64,000 nt of DNA from a bacterium (GTDB lineage: Bacteria; Myxococcota_A; UBA9160; UBA6930): NCBI GenBank assembly GCA_024226235.1, contig JAAELW010000238.1:3046-67045 (forward strand), written 5' to 3'. The translations under genes and the position numbers were made by a program. Within the stretch, counting starts at the first letter, position 1, and every line of letters begins with the position of its first letter. Positions 13,381 to 48,387 of this stretch are shown piece by piece. The notes under the pieces are model-generated. The model was not told where the DNA came from. It ran no database searches and saw only the letters and a list, made by a program, of their open reading frames with translations.

Positions 13381-14076
13381 ATGGCAGACGACGGGACCCG
13401 GAACATGATCGAGGGCATGCTCGCCCAGCTCGAAAAGGAGAAGATGGCGGGCCTCTCGATCGACGATCTCCGAGATGCGATGATGGCGCCCGGTGCAGCC
13501 GAGTCCGTGGCGGAGCTGATGCCGATCGAAGCGGCGTCGGTGCAGCAGGGTGAACCGGCGCCGGATTTCGATCTGGCGTGGCTTCCAGGCAGTGGTCCCG
13601 AAGGAGAAACGCTTCGGCTCTCCTCCCATTTCGGCGACCGACCGGTGGCACTCGTATTCGGCAGTTACACCTGACCGCCTTTCCGGGCCCAGGCTGGGTC
13701 CATCAACCGCATCTACCGCCGCTTCAGGGATCAAGTCGCCTTCTACGTCGTCTACATCAAGGAGATCCATCCGACCGACGGCTGGCAGGTGAAGGAGAAC
13801 GAGCAGGACGCGGTGCTCTTTACACAACATCAGTCGATGGAAGAGCGCGTAGAAGTTGGCGAGGCCTGCATGTTGAAGCTCGCGCTGGAGCCTCCGGCTG
13901 TGGTCGATGAAATGGACGATGCCGTTGCGCGGAACTATGCGGCCGTGCCGGAGCGGCTCTACCTGATCGGCGCCGACGGTCGTGTGGCCTACAAGGGCGG
14001 CATGGGTCCGATGTTCTTCCGGCCCGATGAGTGGGAGGCCGCGATCGAGAGCCACATCGAGAGCACTGGCAAGTAG
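13381..14076 (+). CDS. Deiodinase-like thioredoxin-fold selenoprotein (in-frame UGA = Sec at 13672-13674), soluble form
   Basis: ORFs 13381-13674 and 13789-14076 share one frame, and TGA is the only stop between them. The joined protein reads ...RPVALVFGSYT-U-PPFRAQAGSINRIYRRFRDQVAFYVVYIKEIHPTDGWQ...RLYLIGADGRVAYKGGMGPMFF..., collinear with the iodothyronine deiodinase core. GAGGAG RBS lies before the ATG. Confidence 0.85.
13672..13674 (+). other. Predicted selenocysteine (UGA) recoding site
   Basis: TGA sits between GSYT and PPF, at the position of the catalytic Sec in deiodinases. Confidence 0.8.
13685..13701 (+). promoter_or_regulatory. Candidate bacterial SECIS-like hairpin
   Basis: GGGCCC-AGGCU-GGGUCC forms a 6-bp stem (one G:U pair) with a 5-nt loop containing GG. 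It starts 11 nt after the UGA. Confidence 0.4.
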
Positions 14077-14083
14077 CCCGCTC

Positions 14084-15127
14084 CTATAGCTGCGAAAGGT
14101 AGGCCTCCATCACGGGCTCGAGGTGGTCGGGGTTGAAGCCGAACGGGCCGATTCCCGGGTTGTAGATCACGCGGCCTTCCAGATCGATGAAGTAGATTCG
14201 AGTGGGCCGTGCCGTGTAGAGCGTGGCCACGCGGTTGTCCATCGCATCGACGTAGAGCGGGACGACGCCCTCGAACAGGTTGGCCTGGCAGCTTGCGGCC
14301 ACCCGTTGCCGCTGGGCCAGAGTCACCGGTTCCTTGATGTCGGTACGCGCGCGCTGGCCCGTGAGATCGTTCACGAGCCGCTGGGTACGTGAGCGGCCGA
14401 GCCACCAGCGATCGGTGGGATGGGCTTCCTTGATGTAGACGACGATGAACTCGACCCGATCGTGATACCGCTCGTAGAGGTCTTTGAGACGCACGGTCCC
14501 ATTGCTGAAGGGCGGTCACGTGTAACTGCCAAAGACCAGCGCAACGGGGAGCCTGCCCCGGAAGTCAGAGAGCCGGACCTGGGCGTTTCCCTCCGGGTCT
14601 AGGAGTTCGAAATCCGGTGCCAGATCGCCGGCCTTGGGAGATTTCACATCCTGGGCGAGCTGCCACGTGATCTCTTCATTGCGCCACTCGGCGGCCTGAA
14701 CCAGCAGATCCGTTCCGAGCGTCAGATTGTCCTCGCCCTCCCAGACCATGAAGAAGGACACCACCGCCGCGATCGCGACCGCACCCCCTCGGACGAAGCG
14801 ACCCGGGGAGCGCCGGTTTTCGGAGAGCCCACGTGCGACGTGGAGGAGCAACGCGAATGCTCCAAGCCCGGCCACCAGCGAGACCATCATCGGGGCACCC
14901 CACATCAGGGGCGCCAGCAGGAGAAGGCCCAGCAGCAACCGCAACGCACCGGCTCGGTGGTGCAAGAACAAGCCATGCGCACCGCTGGCAAGCAGGTAGC
15001 AGGAGAGGGCCGCGTGGAAGAAGGCGATCGCTGCGTGGAGGCCATAGACGAGCACGGTCCACAGCAGGTTGGTGGTGTCGACGACGGTTTCATAGCTGGG
15101 GTCCATCGGAGCCTCCACGCCGGGCAT
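14084..15127 (-). CDS. Membrane-anchored deiodinase-like thioredoxin-fold selenoprotein (in-frame UGA = Sec at 14516-14518)
   Basis: ORFs 14516-15127 and 14084-14494 share one frame with no other stop. The N-terminus has about four hydrophobic helices. It continues ...DLAPDFELLDPEGNAQVRLSDFRGRLPVALVFGSYT-U-PPFSNGTVRLKDLYERYHDRVEFIVVYIKEAHPTDRW...IYFIDLEGRVIYNPGIGPFGF. Confidence 0.85.
14485..14501 (-). promoter_or_regulatory. Candidate bacterial SECIS-like hairpin
   Basis: Minus-strand UGGGAC-CGUGC-GUCUCA forms a 6-bp stem (one G:U pair) with a 5-nt loop. It starts 15 nt after the UGA. Confidence 0.35.
14516..14518 (-). other. Predicted selenocysteine (UGA) recoding site
   Basis: Plus-strand tca is TGA on the minus strand, in the same GSYT-U-PPF context as the paralog. 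Confidence 0.8.
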
Positions 15128-15192
15128 GTGTGCCTGGCAACCCTAGCCGAGGCTGTTTGCCGCTGAAGACCGTGCGGACTAGAGTCGAATTT

Positions 15193-15204
15193 GTGAATGT
15201 GAAT
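15193..15204. promoter_or_regulatory. AT-rich GTGAAT-GTGAAT direct repeat in a divergent promoter region (possible operator)
   Basis: tcgaatttGTGAATGTGAATtccgga is an unusually AT-rich island. It lies in the 97-bp gap between the minus-strand selenoprotein gene and the TetR gene. Confidence 0.2.
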
Positions 15205-15224
15205 TCCGGATCCTATTTGCTCGG

Positions 15225-15902
15225 ATGCTTCGAGTGAGGACCCATACGCCCCGGATCGACGATCTCCGGTGGGCAAAGCCGGCCCATCAAGCCCGCAGCC
15301 AGCGCACCCTCGAGCTCCTGCTCGACGCGGCTGAGGCCGAGATCCGTGAGAAGGGCTACGCAGATGCGTCGGTCGCGGAGATCGCGCGTCGCGCGGGGTG
15401 CTCGGTCGGGACCGTCTACCGGCGGTTTCGCGACAAGACCGCGCTGCTCCACGCCCTCGACGAACGCTGGGGGGCGGCGTTCCGTGCCACGATGGAGGAT
15501 GCGGTCGCGCCCGAGCGCTGGCAGGGCGCTCCCATTCTCGAAGTGTTGACCGGCTACATCGCGTTCACACTCAACGAGGGTCACGAGCGTGCCGCACTGC
15601 AGCGCGCCGCGATCACGATGGCCTCGCGTGACGCCAGCTTTGCGGAGCGGCAGATGAAGCTCGCTTCCGAGCTTCATGCGGGACTGCGCGCACTACTCAC
15701 CGCGCGGATCGACGAGATCGGCCACGCCGATCCTCCGCTTGCGATCGAATTCGCACTCGAGCAGTTGAGAGCCATGCTGATGCTTCGTCTGGCTACGCTT
15801 CCGCTCGAAGCGACACTGTTTGGCAATAGTGATGAGCAGTTCATCGATCAGGCCTTGACCAGTATCGCGGCCTATCTGAAGCTCGAACCGCTATCCGCAT
15901 AG
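15225..15902 (+). CDS. TetR/AcrR family transcriptional regulator
   Basis: HTH region: TLELLLDAAEAEIREKGYADASVAEIARRAGCSVGTVYRRFRDKTALLHAL. The gene ends 21 nt before the molybdoenzyme alpha gene. Confidence 0.9.
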   Translation: MLRVRTHTPRIDDLRWAKPAHQARSQRTLELLLDAAEAEIREKGYADASVAEIARRAGCSVGTVYRRFRDKTALLHALDERWGAAFRATMEDAVAPERWQGAPILEVLTGYIAFTLNEGHERAALQRAAITMASRDASFAERQMKLASELHAGLRALLTARIDEIGHADPPLAIEFALEQLRAMLMLRLATLPLEATLFGNSDEQFIDQALTSIAAYLKLEPLSA

Positions 15903-15923
15903 CATCTGCTCAGGAGGGGAACC

Positions 15924-18902
15924 ATGGAAGAACGGAGCACACCGAAGGCCACTGCCGAGGCTACTGGCGGCAAGGCTCCCGCCGCGGGGCTGAGCCGTCG
16001 CCGCTTCCTTCACCTCAGTGGGCTCGGTGTGGCATCGCTGCCGCTGCTCCACTTCGAGAGTACGCCCGCGCGTGCGGCCGCCACGGCGAAACCCAAGCTC
16101 CTGAGCTGGGAGGATCTCTACCGGGAGCGCTGGACCTGGGATCGCGTGGCGAAGGGCTCCCACGGCTGGCTGAACTGCCGCAGCGCGTGCAACTGGGACC
16201 TCTACGTAAAAGATGGGATCGTCGTCCGAGAGGAGCAGGCGGCGAACTACGAGGCTTCGGAGCCCGGGGTACCCGATTTCAATCCTCGTGGTTGTCAGAA
16301 GGGCGCCTGCTACACGGAGGTGATGTATGGCCCGAGCCGACTGACGGTTCCGCTCAAGCGGGCCGGCGAGCGGGGAGAGGGCAAGTGGAAGCAGATCGGC
16401 TGGGACCAGGCCCTCCGCGAAATCGCCGAGAAGCTGATCGACATCTGCCAGCGGTATGGCGGCGAAGCGCTCGTCCAGGATCTGGGCCCCCACTTCGATC
16501 TCGGTGCAACCAATGCGGCTCGCAACCGATTCTTCGGCATGTTGGGTGCGTCTCTCCCCGATGACTGGGCGGAGATCGGGGACCTGAACATTGGCGCGAC
16601 GCTCTCGCTCGGAATCCCGCACATCGGAGGCTCTTCCGACGAGTGGTTCCTCTCGGACTTCCTGGTGGTCTGGATGATGAACCCCTCCGTCACCCAGATG
16701 TCCGATGCCCATTTCCTCTACGAGGCGAAGTACAACGGCGCGGAGCTGGCGGTGATCGACCCCGTCTACAGCGCCACCGCGATGCACGCGGATCAATGGG
16801 TCCCGATCCGGCCCGGCAGTGACGCAGCGCTCGGGCTGGCCACCGCGCGCCACATCTGGGAGAGCGGGCGGATCGATCTCGACTACGTCCGGGAGCAGAC
16901 CGACCTTCCCATCCTGGTCCGCCTGGATACCGGACGCTTCCTCCGCGAGTCGGATCTTCGCACGGGAGGGGCGGACGACCTGCTCTACCTCTGGGACTCC
17001 AAGCAGGACGCGCTCGTCCCTGCACCGGGCTCCCAGGGCAACGACGAGCGCGTAAAGCTCTTCCTGGAGGGACTCGAGCCCGTGATCGAGGGGCGCTTCG
17101 AGGTGGACCTCGCCGACGGCACCCGCATCGGGGTAGCGCCCGTGGGCTCACTACTGCGCGAGCACCTCGATCCATGGACCTTCGAGCGCGCGGCTGCGGT
17201 CACCGGCCTGGACGCTGCGGTGGTCGAGCAATTCGCCGAGGGCTTCGCGGCAGCCGAGCGGCCGATGGTGCTCTCGAGCTGGGGATCGAATCGCTACCTC
17301 CACTCAGACCTGATCAATCGGACCAAGCTGCTCTGCCTCTCGCTGAAGGGAGCGATCGGCAAGAAGGGCGCCGGCTACCACTCCACTGGCTGGGTCGGCA
17401 TCGATGGATTTGGCCAGGTTGCCCAGGACGCCGGAGAGGGTTTCATCGGAACGCTTCGCGGAATGGCGAAAGTGTTCGGAAGCGCCAAGGTGATCGGCAT
17501 GCTGGTGGACCAGATCGCCGGCAAGAAGTCCGAGGCGCAAGTCCAACACGAGCTGACGCGTCACCTGACCACCGGTGAGGATTCGTGCCTGACCAACTCG
17601 GCCAGCCAGAACTACAAATTCCAGGGCCTGGCCGACGATCTCGCGCGTGAGCAGGACCACCTGTATCCGCAACCGCTGGCTGCCTACGTGGCGGAATCCG
17701 AGGCCAAGGGCTGGATGCCCACGCATCCCGCGAAGGGCACCCGACCGCGCTGTTGGGTGACCGGGGGCAGCAACGTGCTGCGACGCACGAACCTGCCCCA
17801 GCGCATGCTCGAAACACTCTGGCCAGGGCTCGAACTCGTGATCGACGTGAACCAGAAGCACACCTTCACGGGGCTCCACGCCGACTACCTCCTGCCTGCT
17901 GCCGGCTACTACGAGAAGCCGGGCATCAAATACTCGGTGGCCTACGTCCCCTACCTGCACTACTGCGACCGGGCGGTGAAGCCGGTCGGTGAGGCGAAGG
18001 ACGAGTGGGAGCTCTACTCGCTGCTGGCCCGGGAGATCCAGCGGATTGCCCAGGAGCGCAACCTCGAGCCGACCCAGGGCTGTGGCACCCAGACGGTCGA
18101 GCTCAAGACGTTTGCCGACCGTTTCTCGTTTGCCGGAGAGTACGGGCCCGAGGATGTGGAGGCGGTCAACCAGTTGATCCTCGAGAAGAGCCCCTCGGCA
18201 GAAGGAATGACCGTCGAGAGCCTCAAAAAGACCGGTATCGCCAAATATCGGAGCGTCGGAGGGATGGGGATCCAGGAGAACCTCTTCAATTCGGATTGGA
18301 AGGGAGAGGGAATGATGCGTGCGCTCACGGACATGAGTGAGCAGCGCTGGCGCTGGCCGACATTGACCGGAAGGCAGCAGTGCTACATCGACCATCCGTG
18401 GTTCATCGGGGCCGGTGAAAGCCTGCCCGATCACAAGGAGAGCCCGAAGGCCGGCGGTGACCATCCGTTCCAGTTCGTTTCGTGCCACTCTCGCTGGAGC
18501 GTCCACAGCGTGTGGCGCGACACCACGATGCTGCTGCGCCTGCAACGTGGAGAGCCGGTCGTGTATCTGAACCCGGCCGAGGCTCAAAGGCTCGGAGTCG
18601 AAGACGGTGCCTGGGCCGAGATCAGCAACGACTACGGCAGCATCCTGATGCGCGCCAAGCACTCCGCCATGGTGCGTCCGACTGTGGCGTACTACTTCCA
18701 TGCCTGGGAGCCGCATCAGTTCCCGGAGCACAAGAGCTACAAGTGGTTGATTCCGGGTTTGATGAACCCACTGCATTTTGCGGGCGGAGAGGGACACCTC
18801 GGCTGGTTCTTCGGTCAGTACACGCCGGGCACCCACGTGCAGGACACGCGCGTTGCCATTGCACCCTCGAATGGCCCGCAGCGGCAGGGAGAACAGAGTT
18901 GA
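15924..18902 (+). CDS. Type II DMSO-reductase-family molybdoenzyme, catalytic alpha subunit (NarG/EbdA-like), Tat-exported
   Basis: Twin-arginine signal LSRRRFLHLSGLG. FS0 motif SHGWLNCRSACNWDLYVKDG...NPRGCQKGAC. NarG-like ...TQMSDAHF segment carrying the expected Mo-ligand Asp. Confidence 0.9.
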   Translation: MEERSTPKATAEATGGKAPAAGLSRRRFLHLSGLGVASLPLLHFESTPARAAATAKPKLLSWEDLYRERWTWDRVAKGSHGWLNCRSACNWDLYVKDGIVVREEQAANYEASEPGVPDFNPRGCQKGACYTEVMYGPSRLTVPLKRAGERGEGKWKQIGWDQALREIAEKLIDICQRYGGEALVQDLGPHFDLGATNAARNRFFGMLGASLPDDWAEIGDLNIGATLSLGIPHIGGSSDEWFLSDFLVVWMMNPSVTQMSDAHFLYEAKYNGAELAVIDPVYSATAMHADQWVPIRPGSDAALGLATARHIWESGRIDLDYVREQTDLPILVRLDTGRFLRESDLRTGGADDLLYLWDSKQDALVPAPGSQGNDERVKLFLEGLEPVIEGRFEVDLADGTRIGVAPVGSLLREHLDPWTFERAAAVTGLDAAVVEQFAEGFAAAERPMVLSSWGSNRYLHSDLINRTKLLCLSLKGAIGKKGAGYHSTGWVGIDGFGQVAQDAGEGFIGTLRGMAKVFGSAKVIGMLVDQIAGKKSEAQVQHELTRHLTTGEDSCLTNSASQNYKFQGLADDLAREQDHLYPQPLAAYVAESEAKGWMPTHPAKGTRPRCWVTGGSNVLRRTNLPQRMLETLWPGLELVIDVNQKHTFTGLHADYLLPAAGYYEKPGIKYSVAYVPYLHYCDRAVKPVGEAKDEWELYSLLAREIQRIAQERNLEPTQGCGTQTVELKTFADRFSFAGEYGPEDVEAVNQLILEKSPSAEGMTVESLKKTGIAKYRSVGGMGIQENLFNSDWKGEGMMRALTDMSEQRWRWPTLTGRQQCYIDHPWFIGAGESLPDHKESPKAGGDHPFQFVSCHSRWSVHSVWRDTTMLLRLQRGEPVVYLNPAEAQRLGVEDGAWAEISNDYGSILMRAKHSAMVRPTVAYYFHAWEPHQFPEHKSYKWLIPGLMNPLHFAGGEGHLGWFFGQYTPGTHVQDTRVAIAPSNGPQRQGEQS

Positions 18903-19936
18903 GCAAGCAACAAGCGAGCCGTCAGGTCGCGATGGTGATGGACCTGAACAAATGCCTCGGTTGCCAGACGTGTACGGTGGCCTGCAAGAAGCTCTGGAAT
19001 CGGGAGTCCGGCGCCGACTACGCGTACTGGAACAATGTCGAAACCATGCCGGGAAAGGGCTATCCGGGGCGATGGCAAGAGACCGGCGGCCGTCACGTCG
19101 ACGCTTCGGTCAAACGCGGCGAGCTTCCGAGCCTCGAACGCGACTACGGACGGGCGTGGAAGTTCAACCATCAGGACGTCGTCCGCTCGAACTCCAAGCG
19201 GGGGGACACCTGGCTTCGCCCGGAAGGCGATCCAAAGTGGGGTCCGAACTGGGACGAGGATCGTGGCGCGGGGAACTATCCCGAAGACAACCACTACTTC
19301 TACCTGCCTCGGATCTGCAACCACTGCACTCATCCGGCATGCCTGGACGCCTGCCCGCGCGCCGCGATCGAGAAACGGGACGAGGACGGGATCGTGTTGG
19401 TCGACCAGGATCGTTGCCACGGCTACCGCTTCTGCGTCGAGGCCTGCCCCTACAAGAAGGTCTTCTTCGATCCGGAAAGGCAGGTCGCGAACAAATGCAT
19501 CTTCTGCATGCCCCGGGTCGAACAAGGGGTGGCACCGGCCTGTGCGCGCCAATGCCCGGGGCGGATGCGCTTCGTCGGCTACCTGGATGACGAAGACGGA
19601 CCCATCCACAAGCTGGTATACGGCTGGAAGGTCGCGCTGCCGCTGCATCCGGAGTACGGGCTCCTGCCGAATGTGTTCTACGTCCCGCCGATGAGCCCGA
19701 GCGCGATGGATGCGAACGGGAAGCCGACGGAAGCGCCGCGCATTCCGATGGAAACCCTCGAGGGCCTGTTCGGACCCAGCGTACGCGAAGCGCTGGCGAC
19801 CGTCGAAGCCGAGCGCGCCAAGCGAAAACGGGGGGAGCCGAGCGAGCTGATGGACCTGCTGATCGCCTACGACTGGAACGAGAATTTCCAGCTCGGTGCG
19901 GGCGGGTCGGTCTGGCCGCGCGAAGGGAGGGCGTGA
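18899..19936 (+). CDS. Type II DMSO-reductase-family beta subunit (NarH/EbdB-like, four Fe-S clusters)
   Basis: Cys groups CLGCQTCTVACK, CNHCTHPACLDACP, CHGYRFCVEACPY (second Cys replaced, 3Fe-4S type) and CIFCMPRVEQGVAPACARQCP. I propose TTG 18899 as the start, overlapping the alpha stop; ATG 18932 is the alternative. Confidence 0.88.
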   Translation: MSKQQASRQVAMVMDLNKCLGCQTCTVACKKLWNRESGADYAYWNNVETMPGKGYPGRWQETGGRHVDASVKRGELPSLERDYGRAWKFNHQDVVRSNSKRGDTWLRPEGDPKWGPNWDEDRGAGNYPEDNHYFYLPRICNHCTHPACLDACPRAAIEKRDEDGIVLVDQDRCHGYRFCVEACPYKKVFFDPERQVANKCIFCMPRVEQGVAPACARQCPGRMRFVGYLDDEDGPIHKLVYGWKVALPLHPEYGLLPNVFYVPPMSPSAMDANGKPTEAPRIPMETLEGLFGPSVREALATVEAERAKRKRGEPSELMDLLIAYDWNENFQLGAGGSVWPREGRA

Positions 19937-20493
19937 TGGCGACGAGCCCCGGGAAGATCGAGCTGATTGCTGCACCCATCGGAATACAACCGGGTGGCTA
20001 TGTCCCGAAGGCCTACGCAGGCCGTGACAAGGCCCCGATGACACCGAGCCTCGAACTGGAGGTGGCGCAGCCGCCCGGAGCCTGGCGTCTGCGCCTGCGT
20101 TGGCCCTGCGCCGAGCCGGTCGTCGACGTGAGCGAGGATCCCTCGCTCTTCCCCGACGCGGCGGCGCTGTTCTCCCCCCAGCAAGAGGATACGCCCTGGG
20201 TCACGATGGGTGCGCCCGGCAACGGGGTGGATGGCGTGCTCTGGCGGGCCGATGGCGAACGCCTTCACCGCATTTCCGCCGAGGGTCTTGGCAGCATGAC
20301 GCGGTCCGACGCCCCGGAGAGCTGGCGCTCCAGCGCTGCGCACGAACGGGGCTTCTGGCAACTCGAGTTCACGCTTTCGGGCTGGGCCAGCTTGGATCGT
20401 TCGAAGAGAGTGGCGGTGGCCATCTGGCGCGGCTCGGCCCAGGATCGGGGCGGGCTCAAGTCCGTGACCGGGGGCTTTCTGGAGGTCGGGTGA
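19933..20493 (+). CDS. EbdC/NarM-like (EB_dh domain) putative heme-b gamma subunit, with no recognisable signal peptide
   Basis: ...DAAALFSPQQEDTPWVTMGAPG...VAVAIWRGSAQDRGGLKSVTG resembles the EB_dh heme-b domain, with candidate Met and Lys ligands. The start overlaps the beta stop. Confidence 0.65.
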   Translation: MMATSPGKIELIAAPIGIQPGGYVPKAYAGRDKAPMTPSLELEVAQPPGAWRLRLRWPCAEPVVDVSEDPSLFPDAAALFSPQQEDTPWVTMGAPGNGVDGVLWRADGERLHRISAEGLGSMTRSDAPESWRSSAAHERGFWQLEFTLSGWASLDRSKRVAVAIWRGSAQDRGGLKSVTGGFLEVG

Positions 20494-20495
20494 GC

Positions 20496-21020
20496 ATGGA
20501 AGCGCGGCTCGAAGCAGCGCTGCCCTTCGTCGCGTGGTCACGCGTCTGGAGCCCGCTCGCACCCGAAGCGTGGCGCCAGGAGGCGTGGACAGCGCTCTCG
20601 CTGCCGGGAAGTTTCGCAGATCTGGAGAGCGCCTTCCTCGATGCCTTCGTCATCGGGCTCGGTGGACCCGATGTCCCGCTGCTGCTCCACGCAGCGCTTG
20701 GCCGCGACGGCGGTACCGTGCGGGAGGATTGGATGCGGGTCATCCAGCACCTCGAGCTTCAATGGAAGGAGCAGGCGCTTCCGCCCGACCATCTCGGTGT
20801 GGCTTGCGACGTGGTGGCCCGTGCCATCGAGCGCGACGAGCCTCTGCTGATTCGCGAGCTCCGCAGGCGCTACCTGGATCCGTGGTGCGCGGTCGCATCC
20901 GAACGGCTTGTAGAAAAGGACGCCGGTCTGGCGGCGCTCCCCGAGGTCTTTGCCTCTGACCTGGCAGTCCTCGCACAAGCCGAGGCTGAGGCCGATCCGC
21001 CGTTCGGTGGCGTCTCATGA
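20496..21020 (+). CDS. TorD/NarJ/DmsD-family molybdoenzyme maturation chaperone (delta subunit)
   Basis: About 175 aa and helical: FADLESAFLDAFVIGLGGPDVPLLLHAALG...LPPDHLGVACDVVA...LRRRYLDPW. It sits immediately after the gamma gene. Confidence 0.7.
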   Translation: MEARLEAALPFVAWSRVWSPLAPEAWRQEAWTALSLPGSFADLESAFLDAFVIGLGGPDVPLLLHAALGRDGGTVREDWMRVIQHLELQWKEQALPPDHLGVACDVVARAIERDEPLLIRELRRRYLDPWCAVASERLVEKDAGLAALPEVFASDLAVLAQAEAEADPPFGGVS

Positions 21021-21054
21021 TAGGCTCGCCGTACCCGAATTGGAGCCCACGATC

Positions 21055-21432
21055 TTGAATACACCGATCCGTATCCTGGTTGCATTGCCCGGCGTCGTGA
21101 TGTTGATGAACGCATTGGGTTGGCTGATCCGCCCTGGACCCACGGCCGAAAGCCTCGCGATGCCGCTTCTGGAGGGGATGGCGCGCAGCACCCAGATTGG
21201 CGATCTGGGTGCGTTCTTCGCTGTGACCGGCATCGTGATCCTGCTCGGTGCCTGGCTACAGCAGCGCAGCTGGCTCTATTGCGGTGCGATGCTGCTTGGT
21301 GGTGCCGCGGCCTTTCGCACCCTCGCGTGGGCCTTCCACGATGCGGAGCTCGCAACCACATTCATCGCATCGGAGATCGTGATGACGGCGATCGTGCTAT
21401 TCGGCGCGTCGAGAGCCAATACGGAGGTATGA
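21055..21432 (+). CDS. Small 4-TM membrane protein (unknown function)
   Basis: Four hydrophobic segments (IRILVALPGVVMLMNALGWLI, LGAFFAVTGIVILLGAW, LYCGAMLLGGAAAF, IASEIVMTAIVLFG). The start is uncertain; I chose TTG 21055. Confidence 0.55.
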   Translation: MNTPIRILVALPGVVMLMNALGWLIRPGPTAESLAMPLLEGMARSTQIGDLGAFFAVTGIVILLGAWLQQRSWLYCGAMLLGGAAAFRTLAWAFHDAELATTFIASEIVMTAIVLFGASRANTEV

Positions 21433-21522
21433 TCCGCACGACACCACCCTCGCGAGTTCCCGCCGAGTGACTCGCACTGGGCCTTTGCATGTGCCAGCAT
21501 GGAACACGTTGGAGGTGCACGG

Positions 21523-22521
21523 ATGACGGATGTCCATCGGATCTGGGGGGCGGAAATATCCCCCTACTCAGTGAAGGTTCGCTCGTACTTTCGTTACAAA
21601 GCCATTCCCCACGAGTGGATCGTGCGCGGACCGGCCGAGATGGAAGAGTTCCAGAAGTACGCGAAGCTTCCGCTGATTCCCGCCGTGGCCACGCCTGAAG
21701 GCGAGGGGATGCAGGATTCGACTCCGATCCTGGAGACGATCGAGGCGCGCAACCCGGAACCTTCGATCCACCTTGGCGATCCGGTTTCGAATTTCGTCTC
21801 TGCACTGCTCGAGGAGTTCGGCGATGAATGGGGCAACAAGTGGATGTTCCATTTCCGGTGGGCCCGCGAGGCCGATCAGGACAGTACGGCTGCACGCCTT
21901 GCCGCCACGATGGCGCCAGGCGTCACGGGTGAGCCACTGCAGGGGATCATCGACGGTATCAAGGATCGGATGGTGAACCGGGTCTGGTTCGTTGGCTCGA
22001 ATGAACAGACGGCGCCGCAGATCGAACAATCCTTCAAGGACGCCCTTGTGCTGATCGAGGCCCATCTCGAAGGGCGTCACTACTTGTTTGGCGGCCGCCC
22101 CGCGTTCGGGGATTTCGGAATCTGGGGTCAGATCTACAATGCCTGGACCGATCCGACCTGCAAACAGATCATCGAGGCCGGGCACCCGAACGTATTGGCG
22201 TGGGTCCGGCGCATGCTGGATCCGAAGAGCGAGGGCGAGTTCGAGCCATGGTCTGCGCTCGAGCCGACCCTGCTGCCGTTGTTGAAGACCCAGGTCGGAG
22301 GGCTCTTCCTGCCCTGGTCGGAGGCGAATCGGAAGGCCCTGGAAGCCGGCGACGAGGAATTCACGGTCGAGTTGGCTTCCGGCCGGTGGACCCAGAAGCC
22401 CCAGAAGTACCACGCGCGGTCGCTGGCGAAGCTCCGGGAGCGCCTTGCGGCAGTTGCCGACAGGGCTGACCTCGATCCCGTGCTCGAGAGTGCGGGCTGC
22501 CTGCGCTGGCTCCAGGCCTAG
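21523..22521 (+). CDS. Glutathione S-transferase-like protein (long form, about 330 aa)
   Basis: GST N-terminal thioredoxin-like domain: IWGAEISPYSVKVRSYFRYKAIPHEWI...LPLIPAVATPEGEGMQDSTPILETIE. GST_C-like helices: YLFGGRPAFGDFGIWGQI. GGAGGT lies before ATG 21523. Confidence 0.8.
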   Translation: MTDVHRIWGAEISPYSVKVRSYFRYKAIPHEWIVRGPAEMEEFQKYAKLPLIPAVATPEGEGMQDSTPILETIEARNPEPSIHLGDPVSNFVSALLEEFGDEWGNKWMFHFRWAREADQDSTAARLAATMAPGVTGEPLQGIIDGIKDRMVNRVWFVGSNEQTAPQIEQSFKDALVLIEAHLEGRHYLFGGRPAFGDFGIWGQIYNAWTDPTCKQIIEAGHPNVLAWVRRMLDPKSEGEFEPWSALEPTLLPLLKTQVGGLFLPWSEANRKALEAGDEEFTVELASGRWTQKPQKYHARSLAKLRERLAAVADRADLDPVLESAGCLRWLQA

Positions 22522-22523
22522 AC

Positions 22524-23249
22524 ATGGCCACTGCCATTGTCGTCGGTGTGGGTGCCGAGAGGGGCGTGGGGGGTGCGTTGTGCCGGCGTTTCGCGAGCGA
22601 GGGGTTGCATGTACTGGTGGGTGGCCGCACCCCCTCCAAGATCGAAGCGGTCGTCGACCACCTGCGCGAGCAGGGGGGACGAGCGACTCCGGTCCAGATC
22701 GATGCCACACGCAGTGAAGACATCTCCCGAATCTTTGACGCAGCAGAGCAGGCCGGAGGCGTCCCCGAACTGGTCGTCTACAACGCTGGCAACAACCGGT
22801 TCAGCGGCCTGCGCGAGATGAGCGACGAGTTCTTCGAGGAGGTCTGGCGTATCTGCTGCTTCGGCGGCTTCCTGGTCGGGCGCGAAGCCGCGACGCGGAT
22901 GCTTCCTGCGGGCGGGGGGAGCCTGCTCTTTACCGGTGCCACCGCTTCGATGCGCGCCCGCCCACCTTTCACCGCCTTCGCGTCAGCCAAGGCGGCCCTT
23001 CGCATGGTGGCACACGGAATGGCCCGCGAATTCGGGGGCGAGGGCCTGCATGTCGGCCACGTCGTGATCGACGGCGTGATCGACGGCGACCGCATCAACG
23101 AACGCATGCCTGCGATCAAGGAGCGCCTCGGCGCGGAAGGGATGCTTCAGGTGGATGACATCGCATCTGCATTCTGGATGCTGCATACGCAGCCGAAGAG
23201 TAGCTGGACGCTGGAGCTCGACATCCGTCCGTTCAAGGAGAGCTTCTGA
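22524..23249 (+). CDS. Short-chain dehydrogenase/reductase (SDR)
   Basis: IVVGVGAERGVGGALCRRFASEG...YNAGN...FASAKAALR shows the Rossmann motif plus the SDR catalytic pattern. Confidence 0.85.
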   Translation: MATAIVVGVGAERGVGGALCRRFASEGLHVLVGGRTPSKIEAVVDHLREQGGRATPVQIDATRSEDISRIFDAAEQAGGVPELVVYNAGNNRFSGLREMSDEFFEEVWRICCFGGFLVGREAATRMLPAGGGSLLFTGATASMRARPPFTAFASAKAALRMVAHGMAREFGGEGLHVGHVVIDGVIDGDRINERMPAIKERLGAEGMLQVDDIASAFWMLHTQPKSSWTLELDIRPFKESF

Positions 23250-23252
23250 CCT

Positions 23253-24014
23253 TCAGCTGATGCGCGAAAAGCCGATCAGACCACCGCCATCGAGAACGAA
23301 AGCCTGGCCGGTGATCCAACCGCTGGCCTCGCCGTGGGCCAGGAAGAGGGCTGCAGCGGCCACGTCCTCGGGCTCGCCCAGGCGTTTCAACGGGTAGGAC
23401 CGCGCGACCTTGTCACCCTGGTCGCCCTCCCACAAGGCGCGGGCGAAGTCGGTCTTGATCAGGCCCGGCGCGATCGCATTGACCCGTACATGGGGTCCGA
23501 GTTCCGCCGCCAGCTGCTTGGTGAGATGGATCAGCGCAGTCTTGGTCAGATCGTAGACGCCGATAATCGGGCTGGTGCCGAAGGCACCGACACTGGCGAT
23601 GTTGATCACCGCGCCACCGTGCTCCTTCATGTGCCGCTGCCAGGCGCGTTGGGTCCAGAAGAGCGGGGCGGTGAGGTTCACTTCGAGGGTCTTCTGCCAG
23701 CGTGGCATGTCCACGTCGATGGTCGGCCCGGCATAGGGGTTGGTCGCGGCATTGTTGACCAGGATGTCGAGACCGCCCAGCCGGTCGAGGGTCGCGCTGA
23801 TCACGCGCTCTGAATCCTCGCTCTTTCCAATGTGGCCCGGTTCGAAGTGGGCGCGCTCGCCGATCTCTTTCACGGCCGCTTCGCAGCTCTCGGCGTTGCG
23901 CGAGGTGATCATCACCTCGGCACCGGCGTCGGCGAAGGCCTGGGCAATGCCCTTGCCGATGCCGCGAGAGCCACCCGTCACGAGCGCCACCTTGCCGTCT
24001 AGCCGCCATTCCAT
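23253..24014 (-). CDS. Short-chain dehydrogenase/reductase (SDR)
   Basis: GKVALVTGGSRGIGKGIA...NNAATNP...YDLTKTALIHLTKQLA...GQAFVLDGG. The start is moved to MEWRLDGK. Confidence 0.9.
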   Translation of the reverse strand: MEWRLDGKVALVTGGSRGIGKGIAQAFADAGAEVMITSRNAESCEAAVKEIGERAHFEPGHIGKSEDSERVISATLDRLGGLDILVNNAATNPYAGPTIDVDMPRWQKTLEVNLTAPLFWTQRAWQRHMKEHGGAVINIASVGAFGTSPIIGVYDLTKTALIHLTKQLAAELGPHVRVNAIAPGLIKTDFARALWEGDQGDKVARSYPLKRLGEPEDVAAAALFLAHGEASGWITGQAFVLDGGGLIGFSRIS

Positions 24015-24092
24015 CGCGGATTCTCCTCGGGCTCGAAAAATGACATGAGCAGTGTCATATTTCAAGGTTCACATCGATTCCGGAGACCCGAC

Positions 24093-25340
24093 ATGCCGAT
24101 GAACGTCCAATCCATCCCCACGCTTTCGGATCGCATCAACCAGGTGCGGTTGCTCACGGCCGAGATCGTCAATCGCGAGATCCTGCCCAACGAGAATACC
24201 CTGTGGCGTTGGCACCGGGATGGTTTCGAGGAGAGCGCGCGTGAGAAGGCGCGGGAACTGCGTCACGACATCCAGGCGAAGGTGAAGCAAGCGGGCCTGT
24301 GGGCACCCCACCTGCCGGAAGACTACGGCGGCTGCGGGCTCAGCTTCCTCGAGCACGCCTACATGAACGAGATCCTGGCCTACAGCGTGGGCGCGGCTTC
24401 GTTGTTCGGGGTGGTGGCACCGAACTCGGGCAACCAGAAGATCCTGCTCAAGTACGGCACCGAGGCGCAGCGCCAGAAGTGGCTGGTGCCGTTGACCGAA
24501 GGCAAGCTCGAGAGCGGTTTCTCGATGACCGAGCCCGACAACGCCGGCTCCGATCCCCGTTCCATCAAGACCACGGCTCGCAAGGACGGGGACCAATGGG
24601 TGATCAACGGCCACAAGTGGTTCACCTCGAACGGCAAGCGCGCCGACTTCCTGATCGTGATGTGCCGGACCGACGATCCGGATGCAGCGGGTGACAAGAA
24701 CACGAAGATGACGCAGATCATCGTTCCGACGGATACCCCCGGCGTGAACCTGATCCGCGGTGTCGAGGTCTGGGGACGCCAAAGCGACCACTGGGAGATC
24801 ATCTACGACGACGTTCGCGTGCCTCTCGAGAATCAGCTCGGTCAGACCGGCTCGGGCCACGCCGCGGCACAAGATCGGCTGGGCGCGGGAAGGGTCTACC
24901 ACTGCATGAATTCAGTGGGCTCGATGTGGCGTGCATTCGACCTGATGGTCGAACGCGCGATGGTTCGGGAAGTTCATGGTGGGCTCCTCGAAACCAAGCA
25001 ATTCGTCCAGGGCTGGATCGCCGATTCCTTCATCGATATCCAGGCCGCCCGCCTGATGACCATCAACTGTGCCGAGAAGATGGACGGAGGCACGGATGCG
25101 CGGACCGACATCTCGGCGCTCAAGATCTTCGTGCCCCATGTCTTCAGCAAGGTCGCGGATCGGGCCATCCAGGTCTGGGGCGCTGCCGGTGTGTCTGGGG
25201 ATCTGCCGCTTTCGGCCATGTATCAGGGCGCACGCACGCTGCGGCTTGCGGACGGTCCGGACGAGGTCCACAAGATCCTGATCGCCAAGAACGTGCTCAA
25301 GCAGTACCACTCGGGTGTGTCCTGGGACTTCGGAAACTAG
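24093..25340 (+). CDS. Acyl-CoA dehydrogenase (FadE2/ACAD10-11-like)
   Basis: GLWAPHLPEDYGGCGLSFLEHAYMNE...GFSMTEPDNAGSDP...INGHKWFTSNG...RLADGPDEVH. Confidence 0.92.
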   Translation: MPMNVQSIPTLSDRINQVRLLTAEIVNREILPNENTLWRWHRDGFEESAREKARELRHDIQAKVKQAGLWAPHLPEDYGGCGLSFLEHAYMNEILAYSVGAASLFGVVAPNSGNQKILLKYGTEAQRQKWLVPLTEGKLESGFSMTEPDNAGSDPRSIKTTARKDGDQWVINGHKWFTSNGKRADFLIVMCRTDDPDAAGDKNTKMTQIIVPTDTPGVNLIRGVEVWGRQSDHWEIIYDDVRVPLENQLGQTGSGHAAAQDRLGAGRVYHCMNSVGSMWRAFDLMVERAMVREVHGGLLETKQFVQGWIADSFIDIQAARLMTINCAEKMDGGTDARTDISALKIFVPHVFSKVADRAIQVWGAAGVSGDLPLSAMYQGARTLRLADGPDEVHKILIAKNVLKQYHSGVSWDFGN

Positions 25341-25366: not shown

Positions 25367-25912
25367 GTGAGACTCGACACCCCCCGCGTTCCGCCGCTCG
25401 ACCCGTCCGAGATGGACGAGAAACTCCGCGAACGGTTTGGGGACCGTCCGATCCTCAACATCTTCCGCACGCTGGCCCAGCATCCCGATCTGATGCGGCG
25501 CTGGCTCGTGTTCGGCAACCATGTACTCGCCAAATCGACGCTACCGGCCCGCGAACGCGAACTGGTGATCCTTCGCATCGGCTATCTGTGTCGCGCTGGC
25601 TACGAATGGGGCCAGCACGTGGAGATCGGCAAGCAGAGCGGCCTGACGGACGACGAGATCACCGCGATCGCAGAGGGTCCGGGTGCAGGTGGGTGGAGCG
25701 AGCTCGACCGGGCTCTGCTTCAGGCCACGGACGAACTGCACGGCGACGCATTCATCGGCGATGCGACCTGGCAGACGCTCAGCAAGCACCTCGATACCCA
25801 GCAGTTGATGGATCTGGTCTTTTCGGTCGGCCAGTACAACCTGGTGTCCATGGCCTTGAACACGCTGGGTGTCCAGCCTGAGCCCGGCTTGGCGAAGCTG
25901 CCCGACGCGTGA
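25367..25912 (+). CDS. Carboxymuconolactone decarboxylase (AhpD-like) family protein
   Basis: LPARERELVILRIGYLCRAGYEWGQHVEIGKQSGLTDDEI...LVFSVGQYNLVSMALN. GTG 25367 is preceded by GGAGGAGG. The upstream part of ORF 24926 overlaps the ACAD gene and is discarded. Confidence 0.8.
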   Translation: MRLDTPRVPPLDPSEMDEKLRERFGDRPILNIFRTLAQHPDLMRRWLVFGNHVLAKSTLPARERELVILRIGYLCRAGYEWGQHVEIGKQSGLTDDEITAIAEGPGAGGWSELDRALLQATDELHGDAFIGDATWQTLSKHLDTQQLMDLVFSVGQYNLVSMALNTLGVQPEPGLAKLPDA

Positions 25913-26709
25913 GCGGGCGGCTCCAGGGAAAGATCGCGCTGGTCATCGGCGCGGGCCAGACGCCGGGCGACACGATCGGCAACGGTCGAGCCACGGCGAT
26001 CCTGTTCGCCAGGGAAGGTGCTTTGGTCGTGGCCGTCGACCGCGACGGGGCTTCGGCCGAAGCCACCGTGGCCACGATCCTGGAAGAAGGTGGCCAGGCG
26101 AGTGCATACGCTGCGGATGCGACCGTGGAAGCCGAGGTCGAGGCGCTCGTCGCTTCGTGCAAGAGCAGCTACGGCCGGATCGACATCCTGCACAACAATG
26201 TCGGGATCGGCGGAGACGACGCGGGACCCGCCCACGTCACGGAGGAGGTCTGGGATCGGATCCTGGGCGTGAACCTGAAGAGTGCGATCTTCCCGTGCAA
26301 GCACGTGCTACCCGTGATGCGTGAGCAGCAGAGCGGTGCGATCGTCAACATTTCGTCGATCGCTGCGGTCTGTTCGACGGGGATCGTGGCCTACAAGACC
26401 TCCAAGGCCGGCCTGAATGCCTACACCCAGGCCCTGGCCGTCGGCAACGCGAAATACGGAATCCGGGCCAATGTGATCATGCCGGGCTTGATGAACACAC
26501 CGATGGCCATCGAGGGGATCTCGGCTGCACGGGGAGTGCCGAAGGACGATCTGATCCGCGCCCGCGATGCGATGGTTCCGTTGGGAGCCAAGATGGGTAC
26601 CGGCTGGGACATCGCCGCTGCAGCCGTCTTTCTCGCCTCGGACGAGGCGCAGTTCATCACCGGAATCGTACTTCCGGTCGATGGGGGCCAGAGCGCACGA
26701 GTAGGCTGA
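25909..26709 (+). CDS. Short-chain dehydrogenase/reductase (FabG-like)
   Basis: GKIALVIGAGQTPGDTIGNGRA...HNNVGI...YKTSKAGLNAYTQALA...GIVLPVDGG. The GTG start overlaps the previous stop (GTGA). Confidence 0.9.
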   Translation: MSGRLQGKIALVIGAGQTPGDTIGNGRATAILFAREGALVVAVDRDGASAEATVATILEEGGQASAYAADATVEAEVEALVASCKSSYGRIDILHNNVGIGGDDAGPAHVTEEVWDRILGVNLKSAIFPCKHVLPVMREQQSGAIVNISSIAAVCSTGIVAYKTSKAGLNAYTQALAVGNAKYGIRANVIMPGLMNTPMAIEGISAARGVPKDDLIRARDAMVPLGAKMGTGWDIAAAAVFLASDEAQFITGIVLPVDGGQSARVG

Positions 26710-26764: not shown

Positions 26765-28048
26765 GTGAACCAAAAAAAGCCGTATCGCCCCTGGTGGACC
26801 TACACGGTCCCGTATTTTGGCCGCGTGCCGGAGCTGAAGCCTCGGCAGTGGCATGTGCTCGGGCTGCTCTCCGCGGCCGAACTCTTCGACAGCTACGATG
26901 TCGGCCTGCTCCTGCTCGCTCTGAAGCAGATCCAGGAGGGGATCGGCATCTCGGAGGCGGATGTCGGCTGGCTCACCGGGATCATTCGTCTCGGCGCGCT
27001 GCCTGCGCTGGCGATCACGGTGGCGGCCGACAGGATCGGCCGCCGACAACTGCTGCTGGGTACGGTCCTGGGTCTCACCGTCTGCACGGCCCTGACGGGC
27101 TTTGCCCAGACTCCACTGCAATTCGTCGCTCTGCAGTTCCTGGTGCGCACTTTTGCCTATGCGGAGACCGCTCTTGCGGTGGTGGTCCTGACCGAGGAAC
27201 TCAATTCCGAAGATCGGGGCTGGGGCATCGGCATGCTGGGCGCACTTGGCTCGCTGGGCCACGGGGTCGCCGCGCTCGCCTTCGGCTTCATCGAAGTCGT
27301 TCCGTTCGGCTGGCGAGGGTTGTACGTGCTGGGTGCCGCCCCCCTGCTGCTGCTGGCCTGGCTTCGCCGGGAGCTGCCCGAGACCCGGCGTTTCGAATCC
27401 CAGCAGACTCAACACGCAGAGGACAGCTGGTGGCACCCCGTCGTGCTGCTGTTCCGGAGCTACCCGGGGCGGATTGCCGCATTGTCCGCTGTCGTCTTCC
27501 CACTCGATTTCGTGATGATGGCGGGCTACACGTTCGCCCCCAAGACCCTTCAGGAGATGCACGGATACGGTCCGGGATCGATCGGCGTGCTCTATCTCTG
27601 CGGGGGGGCGATCGGGATCATGGGAAGCCTGTTGGCGGGCCGGCTGAGCGATCGCTTCGGCCGGCAAAGCGTCGTGGCGGCCGGTGCCCTGATGGCCTTC
27701 GTATCCTTCGCCGGCTTCTACAACATCCGTGGGGGCTGGATCGTGATCCCGTTCTGGATCTTCCAGGTGTTCGCGTTGATCGGACTCGGCGCGACACTCA
27801 AGACACTCGGGAGTGAGCTCTTTCCCACGTCCCATCGTTCGACCGCCTCTGGGGTCCGGGCTGCGATCGGCACCCTCGGAGGGGTGGCAGGGCTCGGGTT
27901 GGAATCCGTCCTCTATGGCATCACGGGCTCCCACGCCGAAGCGATCAGCTGGATGCTCCCCGTGCTGGTGATCCCACCGTTCGTGATGTGGTGGGTGATC
28001 CCGGAGACCGCCCGGCGTACGCTTGAAGAGATTGCGCCCGAACGTTGA
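26765..28048 (+). CDS. MFS transporter
   Basis: About 12 hydrophobic helices. MFS motif-A-like ADRIGRRQLL and GRLSDRFGRQ. Confidence 0.85.
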   Translation: MNQKKPYRPWWTYTVPYFGRVPELKPRQWHVLGLLSAAELFDSYDVGLLLLALKQIQEGIGISEADVGWLTGIIRLGALPALAITVAADRIGRRQLLLGTVLGLTVCTALTGFAQTPLQFVALQFLVRTFAYAETALAVVVLTEELNSEDRGWGIGMLGALGSLGHGVAALAFGFIEVVPFGWRGLYVLGAAPLLLLAWLRRELPETRRFESQQTQHAEDSWWHPVVLLFRSYPGRIAALSAVVFPLDFVMMAGYTFAPKTLQEMHGYGPGSIGVLYLCGGAIGIMGSLLAGRLSDRFGRQSVVAAGALMAFVSFAGFYNIRGGWIVIPFWIFQVFALIGLGATLKTLGSELFPTSHRSTASGVRAAIGTLGGVAGLGLESVLYGITGSHAEAISWMLPVLVIPPFVMWWVIPETARRTLEEIAPER

Positions 28049-46481: not shown

Positions 46482-47195
46482 ATGAAACCAACCGGACCCG
46501 AGGTTCCCCTGACACAACCCGCCTCGAATCAGATCCAGCGTGGAGCCGATACCCACGCCGGAGAGAGTCGCGAGACGATTCTCGACACCGCGGAGGCGTT
46601 GTTCGCTCGGCACGGCTACGAGGGTGTGGGATTGCGCGAGATCGCTCGCCTTGCCCAGCTCTCGAAGTCCGCGCTTTTCCATCACTTTCCCACCAAGATG
46701 GACCTGTATCTGGCCGTCCTGGCGCGGATCTTTGGTGATCTCGAGGGGTGTCTGTCGGAGGCTTCCAGCAGCGAGGGGAGCGCTCTCGCGCGTCTTCTGG
46801 CCTGGGTGGATGCAATGCTCGACGCGCTCGCCGAGCGCGACACCCGTGCGCCGCTCTTGATGCGGACACTCTTCGAGGGTGAAGTGCTCGAGCACGACTC
46901 CGACACGCCCGAGGTCAATGGCCCGCTGAAGAGGATTCTCGAAGCTGTTTCATCACTGTTGCACGAAGGCATCGAGGCTGGAGATCTCCGCCCGATCCCG
47001 GTGCCGCATGCCACGCAGAGCCTGATCGGCGTACTGCTCTTCCATTTCGCTTCGGGTGGCTTCGGGGACGAGATCCTCGGTCGACCCGTATTCTCAGCGA
47101 CGGAGATCCGTCGCCACAAGGAGTTCGTTCTCTCATTCATAGAGACCGGCCTGTCCGCCAGACCGAACCACCCACAAGGAGCCCTGGGATCATGA
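46482..47195 (+). CDS. TetR/AcrR family transcriptional regulator
   Basis: ILDTAEALFARHGYEGVGLREIARLAQLSKSALFHHFPTKMDLY. Its stop overlaps the next start (ATGA). Confidence 0.9.
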   Translation: MKPTGPEVPLTQPASNQIQRGADTHAGESRETILDTAEALFARHGYEGVGLREIARLAQLSKSALFHHFPTKMDLYLAVLARIFGDLEGCLSEASSSEGSALARLLAWVDAMLDALAERDTRAPLLMRTLFEGEVLEHDSDTPEVNGPLKRILEAVSSLLHEGIEAGDLRPIPVPHATQSLIGVLLFHFASGGFGDEILGRPVFSATEIRRHKEFVLSFIETGLSARPNHPQGALGS

Positions 47196-48250: not shown

Positions 48251-48289
48251 CTCCCCGCGCCAGCTGATCCAGGCCAGACCCACCTGATC

Positions 48290-48318: not shown

Positions 48319-48387
48319 GACTGGGGCTGTTCGCCGTGTCCGTAGTATAGTCGCAGGGCCGCCTTCATCCCGAAGAGAGGAGCCCCG

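Follow-up and report, generated by a model that had tools for sequence, protein, structure and literature searches.

Which reaction does a molybdoenzyme operon on a myxococcotal contig serve? The operon lies at positions 15225-21020 of a 64,000-nucleotide stretch of contig JAAELW010000238.1 (assembly GCA_024226235.1), called the window here, and comprises genes for a TetR-family regulator and for alpha, beta, gamma, and delta proteins related to the type II dimethyl sulfoxide (DMSO) reductase family. Its alpha subunit falls in one clade with the DH5-7 proteins of Sterolibacterium denitrificans, the group that contains steroid C26 dehydrogenase 1 (S26DH1). The operon is best read as encoding a periplasmic alpha-beta-gamma molybdoenzyme of the group formed by ethylbenzene dehydrogenase (EBDH), steroid C25 dehydrogenase (S25DH), and S26DH, together with its own chaperone and TetR regulator. 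The enzyme is probably a water-dependent C-H hydroxylase, a reading given a probability of about 60%. To our knowledge, O2-independent hydroxylation of unactivated C-H bonds with water is rare, and few enzymes that perform it have been characterized (EBDH, S25DH1-4, S26DH1, and p-cymene dehydrogenase).

Subunits, cofactor sites, and regulator

An earlier note on this DNA, made by a model from the letters alone, had described genes in the order TetR-alpha-beta-gamma-delta and had assigned them to a type II DMSO-reductase-family operon with A-B-C-D gene order. Both descriptions hold. The five genes are tightly packed on the + strand at the coordinates given, the GC content at third codon positions is of coding type in all five genes (0.74-0.82, in a window with 64% GC), and the Pfam and NCBIfam models fit (Table 1). 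The TetR and alpha genes are separated by 21 nt, and an AGGAGG ribosome-binding site lies upstream of alpha. The GTG start codon of gamma overlaps the stop codon of beta (GTGA), and delta starts 2 nt past the gamma stop codon. A scan of positions 14900-23400 for promoters and terminators returned nothing exceeding chance.

The alpha subunit carries the Tat signal (S24-RRRFL) and the NarG-like FS0 motif (H80-x4-C85-x3-C89-x34-C124) that the same note had listed, and the FS0 residues H80, C85, C89, and C124 are invariant in 14 relatives. Its best NCBIfam model is TIGR03479 (type II DMSO reductase alpha; 819 bits, E=4e-246). Judged by sequence, the alpha clade is a divergent branch of this family. 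On alignment, the Mo-ligand Asp of alpha is D220 in the segment WAEIGDLN, which is matched with the crystallographic Mo ligands Asp223 of EbdA (DIGDT) and Asp170 of PcrA (WYGDH). This alignment is agreed by phmmer (against solved structures), MAFFT, and HHalign, and the residue is Asp in 185 of 185 clade sequences. The ligand had previously been expected in an SDAHF segment. That segment is present and conserved (MSDAHF, residues 259-264), but its Asp, D261, is ruled out as the ligand because EbdA has SSYHF at this place, and the role falls to D220.

What had been said of beta and gamma also stands. Beta, described as having four Cys groups with a 3Fe-4S-like third group (CHGYRFC), contains 15 Cys grouped 4+4+3+4, the third group being C162-HGYRF-C168-VEA-C172. 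It is predicted to hold three [4Fe-4S] clusters and one [3Fe-4S] cluster. Its score on TIGR03478 (494 bits) exceeds the cut-off of 481 bits, and the beta genes of related loci are 66-74% identical to it. In the orthologous locus of a Sterolibacterium metagenome-assembled genome (MAG), beta is 70% and gamma 41% identical to the window's. Gamma, described as EB_dh-like and heme b-like, matches EbdC (PDB 2ivf_C) with E=2e-10 and retains both heme b ligands, M92 and K176 corresponding to Met108 and Lys201 of EbdC. Its matches to Pfam EB_dh (24.6 bits) and TIGR03477 (72 bits) are both under the cut-off. Beta and gamma both lack a signal peptide.

Delta gives weak matches to PF02613 (NarJ) and TIGR03482 (19 bits each, E ~1e-3). 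Its homologues (37-61% identity) sit after gamma or directly after alpha in related loci, with a homologous gene after gamma in at least 12 of them. This conserved position supports delta as a candidate NarJ/TorD-type chaperone. The order alpha-beta-gamma-delta recurs in at least 12 loci from different phyla, and alpha and delta occur alone in some. Clade members at four loci (L001, L009, L010, and L011) have alpha followed directly by delta, without nearby beta or gamma genes. In S. denitrificans, paralogues are reported to share their beta and gamma subunits, and this arrangement suggests the same here. In the window, a hydrophobic small open reading frame (ORF; at most 160 aa) overlaps the 3' end of delta by at most 70 nt. 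Neither a Pfam model nor any gene of the related loci matches it, and its true start probably lies further downstream.

Upstream of the TetR gene, a 23-bp motif, TTGTGAATGTGAATTCCGGATCC (= TTGTGAATGTGAATTCCNNATCC), ends 11 nt before the start codon. Among the window, L081, L089, and L090, the motif hardly varies in its place upstream of TetR, in contrast to the diverged intergenic DNA around it, and a 14-nt core of it is also found in L081 and L089. With up to 3 mismatches allowed, the window contains one copy, against 0 expected by chance. In L081, L089, L090, and L091, the gene directly upstream of alpha is a TetR orthologue of 71-77% identity, and L007 has one of 45% identity in this place. 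The regulator is kept only among the closest relatives. The motif is a probable TetR operator, and if read as such, TetR-alpha-beta-gamma-delta would form an autoregulated unit.

Placement of the alpha subunit among known enzymes

Against solved structures, alpha scores 480 bits with PcrA (PDB 5e7o), 479 bits with EbdA, and 225 bits with NarG. It is 32-33% identical to EbdA and, among proteins of annotated plasmids, to ClrA of Alicycliphilus denitrificans BC and Ideonella and to NarG of Haloferax mediterranei. In a large protein database, alpha belongs to a dense family of 88-59% identity, drawn from metagenomes and from MAGs of Myxococcota, Pseudomonadales, Moraxellaceae, and Gammaproteobacteria. 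One isolate, the alkane-degrading denitrifier HdN1, is among these matches, at 59% identity. The family collapses to one representative in a library clustered at 50% identity, in which the next representatives are 38-45% identical. Identity to the window protein is 52% or more within the clade, and the best non-member among the cluster representatives reaches 45%. The nearest of these representatives come from MAGs, bear only 'molybdopterin-dependent oxidoreductase' names, and provide no functional anchor. Papers on CANT-HYD and on the MopB superfamily held no clade-level information.

N-terminal sequences connect the family to studied proteins. Supplementary Table 3 of a study of S. denitrificans lists the N-termini of its alpha1-alpha8, an HdN1 'EbdA-like' protein, CmdA, EbdA, and AhyA of strain Hxd3 (Jacoby et al., 2020; PMC7411048). 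The HdN1 hit is the 'EbdA-like' entry of that table (37/37 residues). The N-termini of alpha5 and alpha6 match loci of the Sterolibacterium MAG that are 55% identical to the window alpha, and those of alpha1-4 (S25DH) match a Rhodocyclaceae MAG protein that is just 39-40% identical. Starting from the Sterolibacterium MAG protein, a second database search recovered P0287 and P0289 of S. denitrificans, which both carry the NCBI name 'putative steroid C25 dehydrogenase-like alpha-subunit'. P0287 begins MGILATSNLVSASRRKFL, which is the 'alpha6' entry and the DH5_for primer, and P0289 begins MTTASPAQPNPARRRFL, which is alpha7. The window alpha is 56% identical to both over ~976 aa. The labels of Supplementary Tables 3 and 4 clash, with 'alpha6' (MGILATS...) corresponding to the DH5_for primer and 'alpha5' (MERSSAS...) to the DH6_for primer, and the printed sequence of S26DH1 is ambiguous between the two labels (PMC7411048). 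With mutual identities of more than 80% among DH5-7 (PMC7411048), the clash is harmless here.

The phylogeny of alpha was estimated by neighbor joining (NJ) from 81 sequences and 906 columns with <20% gaps, using Kimura distances, 200 bootstraps, and a NarG-type root. Known reductases in this sample were ClrA, PcrA-like, haloarchaeal NarG, and NarG proteins. One clade of 36 sequences, with 100% bootstrap support, unites the window protein, HdN1, S. denitrificans DH5/6 and DH7, and Denitratisoma DHT3. It divides into a subclade of the window and HdN1 (73% support) and an S26DH-type subclade (90%), and the window's own lineage (P0001, P0003, and P0011) has 83-100% support. Together with the S25DH-type, EbdA-type, and CmdA/T. 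terpenica-type groups, this clade makes up a hydroxylase assemblage. The ClrA group, the PcrA-like proteins with haloarchaeal NarG, and the NarG branch lie outside it. A T. terpenica fragment anchors the CmdA-like group (P0130, P0134, and P0135), and an alpha4 fragment confirms L069 as S25DH-type. The earlier note had judged the operon closer to anaerobic hydroxylases than to nitrate, chlorate, or selenate reductases. In the tree, it groups with the hydroxylases rather than with nitrate, chlorate, or perchlorate reductases. The subunit is not, however, equally distant from all known enzymes, given its fully supported clade with DH5-7 at 56% identity. These closest known relatives had been overlooked.

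DH5, or S26DH1, hydroxylates the allylic C26 methyl group of desmost-1,4-dien-3-one with water and oxidizes the alcohol to the aldehyde (PMC7411048). The enzyme contains Mo, ~20 Fe, and heme b, and has subunits of 113, 40, and 20 kDa (PMC7411048). The window system resembles S26DH1, DH6, and DH7 in its alpha-beta-gamma order, its Tat signal, its Arg at the position of EbdA Lys450, and its subunit sizes (992, 334, and 186 aa, or ~110, 38, and 20 kDa). It differs from them in having its putative chaperone in the operon, whereas the S26DH chaperone is encoded elsewhere, in the TetR gene directly upstream, and in the lack of a sterol-pathway context. The host is also probably a different one, a member of the Myxococcota, judged by the nearest relatives, rather than of the Rhodocyclales. 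The HdN1 protein (FP929140.1, ~2,501,347-2,504,301) shares the window's subclade and its alpha-beta-gamma-delta cassette, but the HdN1 cassette lacks a TetR gene and stands in a mobile-looking genomic context.

More distant systems share the enzyme type rather than close sequence. S25DH1-4 of S. denitrificans have the same enzyme class, cofactor set, and water-dependent hydroxylation of an isoprenoid side chain. However, the S25DH-type protein of L069, whose N-terminus is 78-89% identical to those of alpha1-4, is just ~39-40% identical to the window alpha, and S25DH-type genes are often ordered gamma-beta-alpha or occur as an orphan alpha. EbdABCD (PDB 2IVF) shares the A-B-C-D order, the Asp Mo ligand, the Met and Lys heme b ligands of gamma, and a His in the His192 loop. 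Its alpha subunit is only 32% identical, and the window proteins stay far below the cut-offs of NF042978 (502/2000 bits), NF042979 (419/740 bits), and NF042980 (49/400 bits). PcrAB (PDB 4YDD and 5E7O) and ClrABDC have the alpha-beta(-gamma) architecture, and the PcrA score equals that of EbdA, but identity is ~32-35%.

Position 190 of alpha separates the two subclades. Across 182 clade sequences, it is His (GPHFD) in 105 and Asn (GPNFD) in 77, and this class matches that of the nearest neighbor for all but one sequence. The His type comprises the window, HdN1, and all close relatives; the Asn type is the S26DH type, and S25DH-type proteins likewise have Asn. Besides this position, only three others split the subclades at the 90% level (P232/A, V618/L, and Y662/W). 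H190 aligns exactly with EbdA His192 in phmmer, whereas MAFFT and HHalign put it one residue after. Because the tools disagree by one residue, the two residues are placed only in the same loop. According to a published review, the His to which OH rebound is attributed in the proposed EBDH mechanism is missing from S25DH. A second residue, Arg457, is found in the whole clade, whereas EbdA (Lys450), S25DH-type, and ClrA sequences have Lys there.

A separate observation concerns the S25DH-like group (~40% identical to the window alpha) in MAGs of Myxococcota and Binatia. These genomes hold tandem sets of 3-4 alpha paralogues within ~15 kb (L028, L062, L071, and L076; also L030, L042, L046, L061, L063, L064, and L068). 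The residue equivalent to window position 190 varies among them (N, G, L, or A). The tandem paralogues point to a large unexplored enzyme radiation.

Proposed reaction and competing readings

The domain and cofactor motifs, the identity to P0287 and P0289, and the shared clade support placing the window enzyme in the hydroxylase group. The motifs, Tat signal, and clade membership are observed directly, and the steps of the mechanism are modeled on EBDH, S25DH, and S26DH. In this scheme, delta would insert the cofactor Mo-bisPGD (PGD, pyranopterin guanine dinucleotide) in the cytoplasm, and the folded alpha-beta-gamma complex would be exported via Tat by the signal of alpha. In the periplasm, Mo(VI)=O would attack a C-H bond of the hydrophobic substrate by abstracting a hydride (or a hydrogen atom and an electron), and the OH returned to the substrate would derive from water. 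The two electrons would travel by way of FS0, the beta subunit's four clusters, and heme b, and an acceptor in the periplasm, for instance cytochrome c, would take them up. Repression by TetR at the 23-bp motif would last until the regulator binds the substrate or a related lipid.

As the earlier note had stated, the sequence does not reveal the substrate. By analogy, a hydrophobic chain of alkyl or isoprenoid type is most likely. Many isoprenoids end in a prenyl group, (CH3)2C=CH-. Since the nearest known activity attacks an allylic methyl group of an isoprenoid terminus and this terminus is widespread, an isoprenoid or other long alkyl chain is the simplest assumption. The sister branch in which the window enzyme falls is without a characterized member, so its substrate is probably not the S26DH1 sterol itself.

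Several points weigh against the hydroxylase reading. The TIGR03479 score of alpha lies below the curated cut-off of 985 bits, the tree is an NJ tree only, and its deeper nodes among the hydroxylase groups have just 4-62% support. The His190 branch has no characterized member, and 56% identity does not fix a substrate. Residue 190 is His in the window and Asn in both S26DH and S25DH. The cassette has no conserved neighbors that encode a cytochrome c or belong to a steroid, isoprenoid, or alkane pathway. Additionally, the direction of the reaction, as dehydrogenase or reductase, is not readable from the sequence.

Among the alternatives, a true steroid C26 dehydrogenase isoenzyme, acting on the allylic C26 methyl of delta-24 sterol side chains in anoxic sterol degradation, is unlikely. 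The clade shared with DH5-7 and the equal gene order and subunit sizes favor it, as do the acyl-CoA dehydrogenases (ACADs), short-chain dehydrogenases/reductases (SDRs), and enoyl-CoA hydratase encoded in the window. However, the window protein lies in the sister subclade, and all 77 S26DH-type sequences have Asn where it has His. DH5-7 are also far more alike mutually than any of them is to the window alpha. The 64 kb hold no S25DH-type paralogue and no 25-hydroxysteroid kinase/dehydratase-like gene. Among the 80 loci listed, an S25DH-type locus co-occurs in 1/12 His-type and 9/18 Asn-type genomes, a difference that is suggestive only. That His-type genomes nearly lack S25DH-type partners argues, together with the His/Asn switch, against the sterol substrate of S26DH1 itself.

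An oxygen-independent n-alkane or alkene hydroxylase, like the proposed AhyABC of Desulfococcus oleovorans Hxd3, is quite unlikely. Such an enzyme might be the missing alkane-activating enzyme of HdN1, which degrades C6-C30 alkanes anoxically without an alkylsuccinate synthase and by an activation mechanism that is unresolved. The HdN1 'EbdA-like' protein belongs to the window's own subclade, and the cassettes of L082 and L083 are flanked by genes for wax-ester synthases, hydrolases, an acyl-CoA synthetase, and a P450. In HdN1 itself, however, the cassette stands amid RHS, IS66, and cellulase genes without a catabolic context. The 30-aa N-terminus of Hxd3 AhyA (WP_012173623.1) matches no clade member, and AhyA is described in the literature as a separate cluster. 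Non-activated alkane C-H bonds are also far harder to oxidize than allylic, benzylic, or tertiary ones. The broader proposal is just as doubtful, namely that the His190 branch consists of distinct, widespread oxygen-independent hydroxylases of non-steroid aliphatics (alkanes, alkenes, and wax or isoprenoid chains), perhaps including the alkane-activating enzyme of HdN1.

Automatic annotation points to a respiratory reductase acting on chlorate, perchlorate, selenate, or nitrate, or else to a dimethylsulfide dehydrogenase (the HdN1 homologue is named 'dimethylsulfide dehydrogenase alpha subunit' and several clade members are labeled DdhA in public databases), a reading that is very improbable. 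In its favor, the subunit and cofactor architecture is identical and PcrA scores like EbdA. Against it, ClrA and haloarchaeal NarG are distant in identity, and the reductase groups sampled in the tree (ClrA, PcrA-like, haloarchaeal NarG, and NarG) branch off outside the hydroxylase assemblage. The operon has neither cld nor cytochrome c nor respiratory genes next to it, and cld is missing from the whole window. D214 and W215 stand where PcrA has its gate residues F164 and Y165.

On the preferred reading of the operon as a hydroxylase of the EBDH/S25DH/S26DH group, what is new is a large sister branch of S26DH-type enzymes without a characterized member, marked by a His/Asn switch in the EbdA His192 loop. 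The branch has so far appeared in the literature only as the HdN1 'EbdA-like' sequence. At least 105 sequences belong to it, drawn from strain HdN1 and from MAGs of Myxococcota, Pseudomonadales, Moraxellaceae, and Caulobacterales. In many bacteria outside the Rhodocyclales, it takes the form of a self-contained cassette of four genes, putatively under TetR control. The locus offers a concrete target, with one cassette, one diagnostic residue, and one candidate operator, and would bear on the soundness of metagenomic 'AhyA' or 'DdhA' annotations. If the substrate is an alkane or a common isoprenoid, the branch would matter for anoxic hydrocarbon and lipid turnover.

Gene neighborhood and the wider window

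Downstream of the operon lie genes for a glutathione S-transferase (GST), SDRs, an ACAD, a carboxymuconolactone decarboxylase (CMD)-like protein, and a major facilitator superfamily (MFS) transporter. The SDR, ACAD, CMD, and MFS genes that the earlier note had named are thus all present. It had used them as an argument for hydroxylase function, to be abandoned if they were not conserved with the operon, and they are not. The GST, SDR, ACAD, CMD, and MFS genes are absent beside the cassette in relatives of 88%, 84%, 80%, and 59-72% identity. The 88% relatives (L089-L091) have an enoyl-CoA hydratase gene and TetR upstream and a DUF7064 gene downstream. The 84% relative (L081) keeps TetR among otherwise different neighbors. 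The 80% relative (L082 and L083) is flanked by genes for an acyl-CoA synthetase, two wax-ester synthases, alpha/beta hydrolases, and a P450, and other relatives have housekeeping neighbors. Because the flanks do not recur, the contextual argument from them is unsupported. A regulon shared with the flanking SDR, ACAD, and GST genes likewise finds no support, since the window holds a single copy of the 23-bp motif and the flanks change between relatives.

Table 1. Positions of the features described (window coordinates unless another locus is named)
Feature	Position	Strand	Basis
23-bp motif	15191-15213	+	
TetR-family regulator, 225 aa, first operon gene	15225-15902	+	PF00440, 58 bits
Alpha, catalytic Mo-bisPGD and FS0 subunit, 992 aa	15924-18902	+	PF00384, PF01568, TIGR03479
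Tat motif of alpha	15993-16010		
FS0 motif of alpha	16161-16295		
His190 of alpha	16491-16493	+	sequence alignment
D220 of alpha	16581-16583		alignment with EbdA and PcrA
R457 of alpha	17292-17294	+	sequence alignment
Beta, Fe-S electron-transfer subunit, 334 aa	18932-19936	+	TIGR03478
Gamma, EB_dh-fold heme b subunit, 186 aa	19933-20493	+	EbdC match (2ivf_C)
M92 of gamma	20206-20208		
K176 of gamma	20458-20460		
Delta, putative NarJ/TorD-like assembly chaperone, predicted to be outside the mature enzyme, 174 aa	20496-21020	+	weak PF02613, TIGR03482
Small hydrophobic ORF	20950-21432	+	
GST	21499-22521		
SDR	22524-23249		
SDR	23253-24065	-	
ACAD	24045-25340		
CMD-like gene	25412-25912		
SDR	25909-26709		
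MFS transporter	26765-28048		
ThDP-enzyme locus, L092	3386-7986		
ThDP-enzyme locus, L086	2506-5019		
ThDP-enzyme locus, L094	6186-7877		
ThDP-enzyme locus, L005	~7399-9030		
ThDP-enzyme locus, L002	7476-9113		
ThDP-enzyme locus, L004	1410-3017		
ORF, 644 aa	10106-12040	+	
Deiodinase-like gene	13381-14076	+	PF00837
In-frame TGA	13672-13674		
Deiodinase-like gene	14084-15127	-	PF00837
In-frame TGA	14516-14518		
Fused gene, 973 aa	43288-46209	-	
Region with second molybdopterin oxidoreductase	46883-50583	+	Molybdop_Fe4S4
Fused gene, 849 aa	51715-54264	-	
Aldehyde:ferredoxin oxidoreductase	61508-63520	-	AFOR_N, AFOR_C
ThiS-like gene	63597-63992	-	

Thiamine diphosphate (ThDP)-dependent enzymes adjoin or lie near His-type cassettes in six loci of about four independent lineages. 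They are acetolactate-synthase-like or indolepyruvate/phenylpyruvate-decarboxylase-like, with an SDR gene adjacent in two loci. These neighbors could hint at a route from hydroxylation through alcohol oxidation to C-C cleavage. The window itself has no such ThDP-enzyme gene.

The TetR gene is closely preceded by two iodothyronine-deiodinase-like genes. Both contain an in-frame TGA within VALVFGSYT-TGA-PPF, and with TGA read as Cys, the PF00837 match spans the site (114 and 89.5 bits). Given this in-frame codon, the genes probably encode selenocysteine proteins. A search for selenocysteine insertion sequence (SECIS) elements downstream of both TGA codons gave hairpins whose folding does not surpass that of shuffled sequence. 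In the minus-strand gene, the N-terminal half is hydrophobic.

A tungsten-type aldehyde:ferredoxin oxidoreductase (AFOR_N 227 bits, AFOR_C 279 bits), adjoined by a ThiS-like gene, suggests an anaerobic or facultative host. Although 40 kb off the operon, it could in principle oxidize aldehydes. A second, unrelated molybdopterin oxidoreductase (745 aa) has an AurF-like di-iron protein encoded directly upstream and a flagellin gene downstream. The window also holds an ORF of 644 aa with a GC content of 0.83 at third codon positions and no Pfam or NCBIfam match. Two genes are fusions. One combines two family III CoA-transferase stretches in 849 aa, and the other is a 973-aa transaldolase/phosphoglucose isomerase in a pentose-phosphate cluster with glucose-6-phosphate dehydrogenase and transketolase genes.

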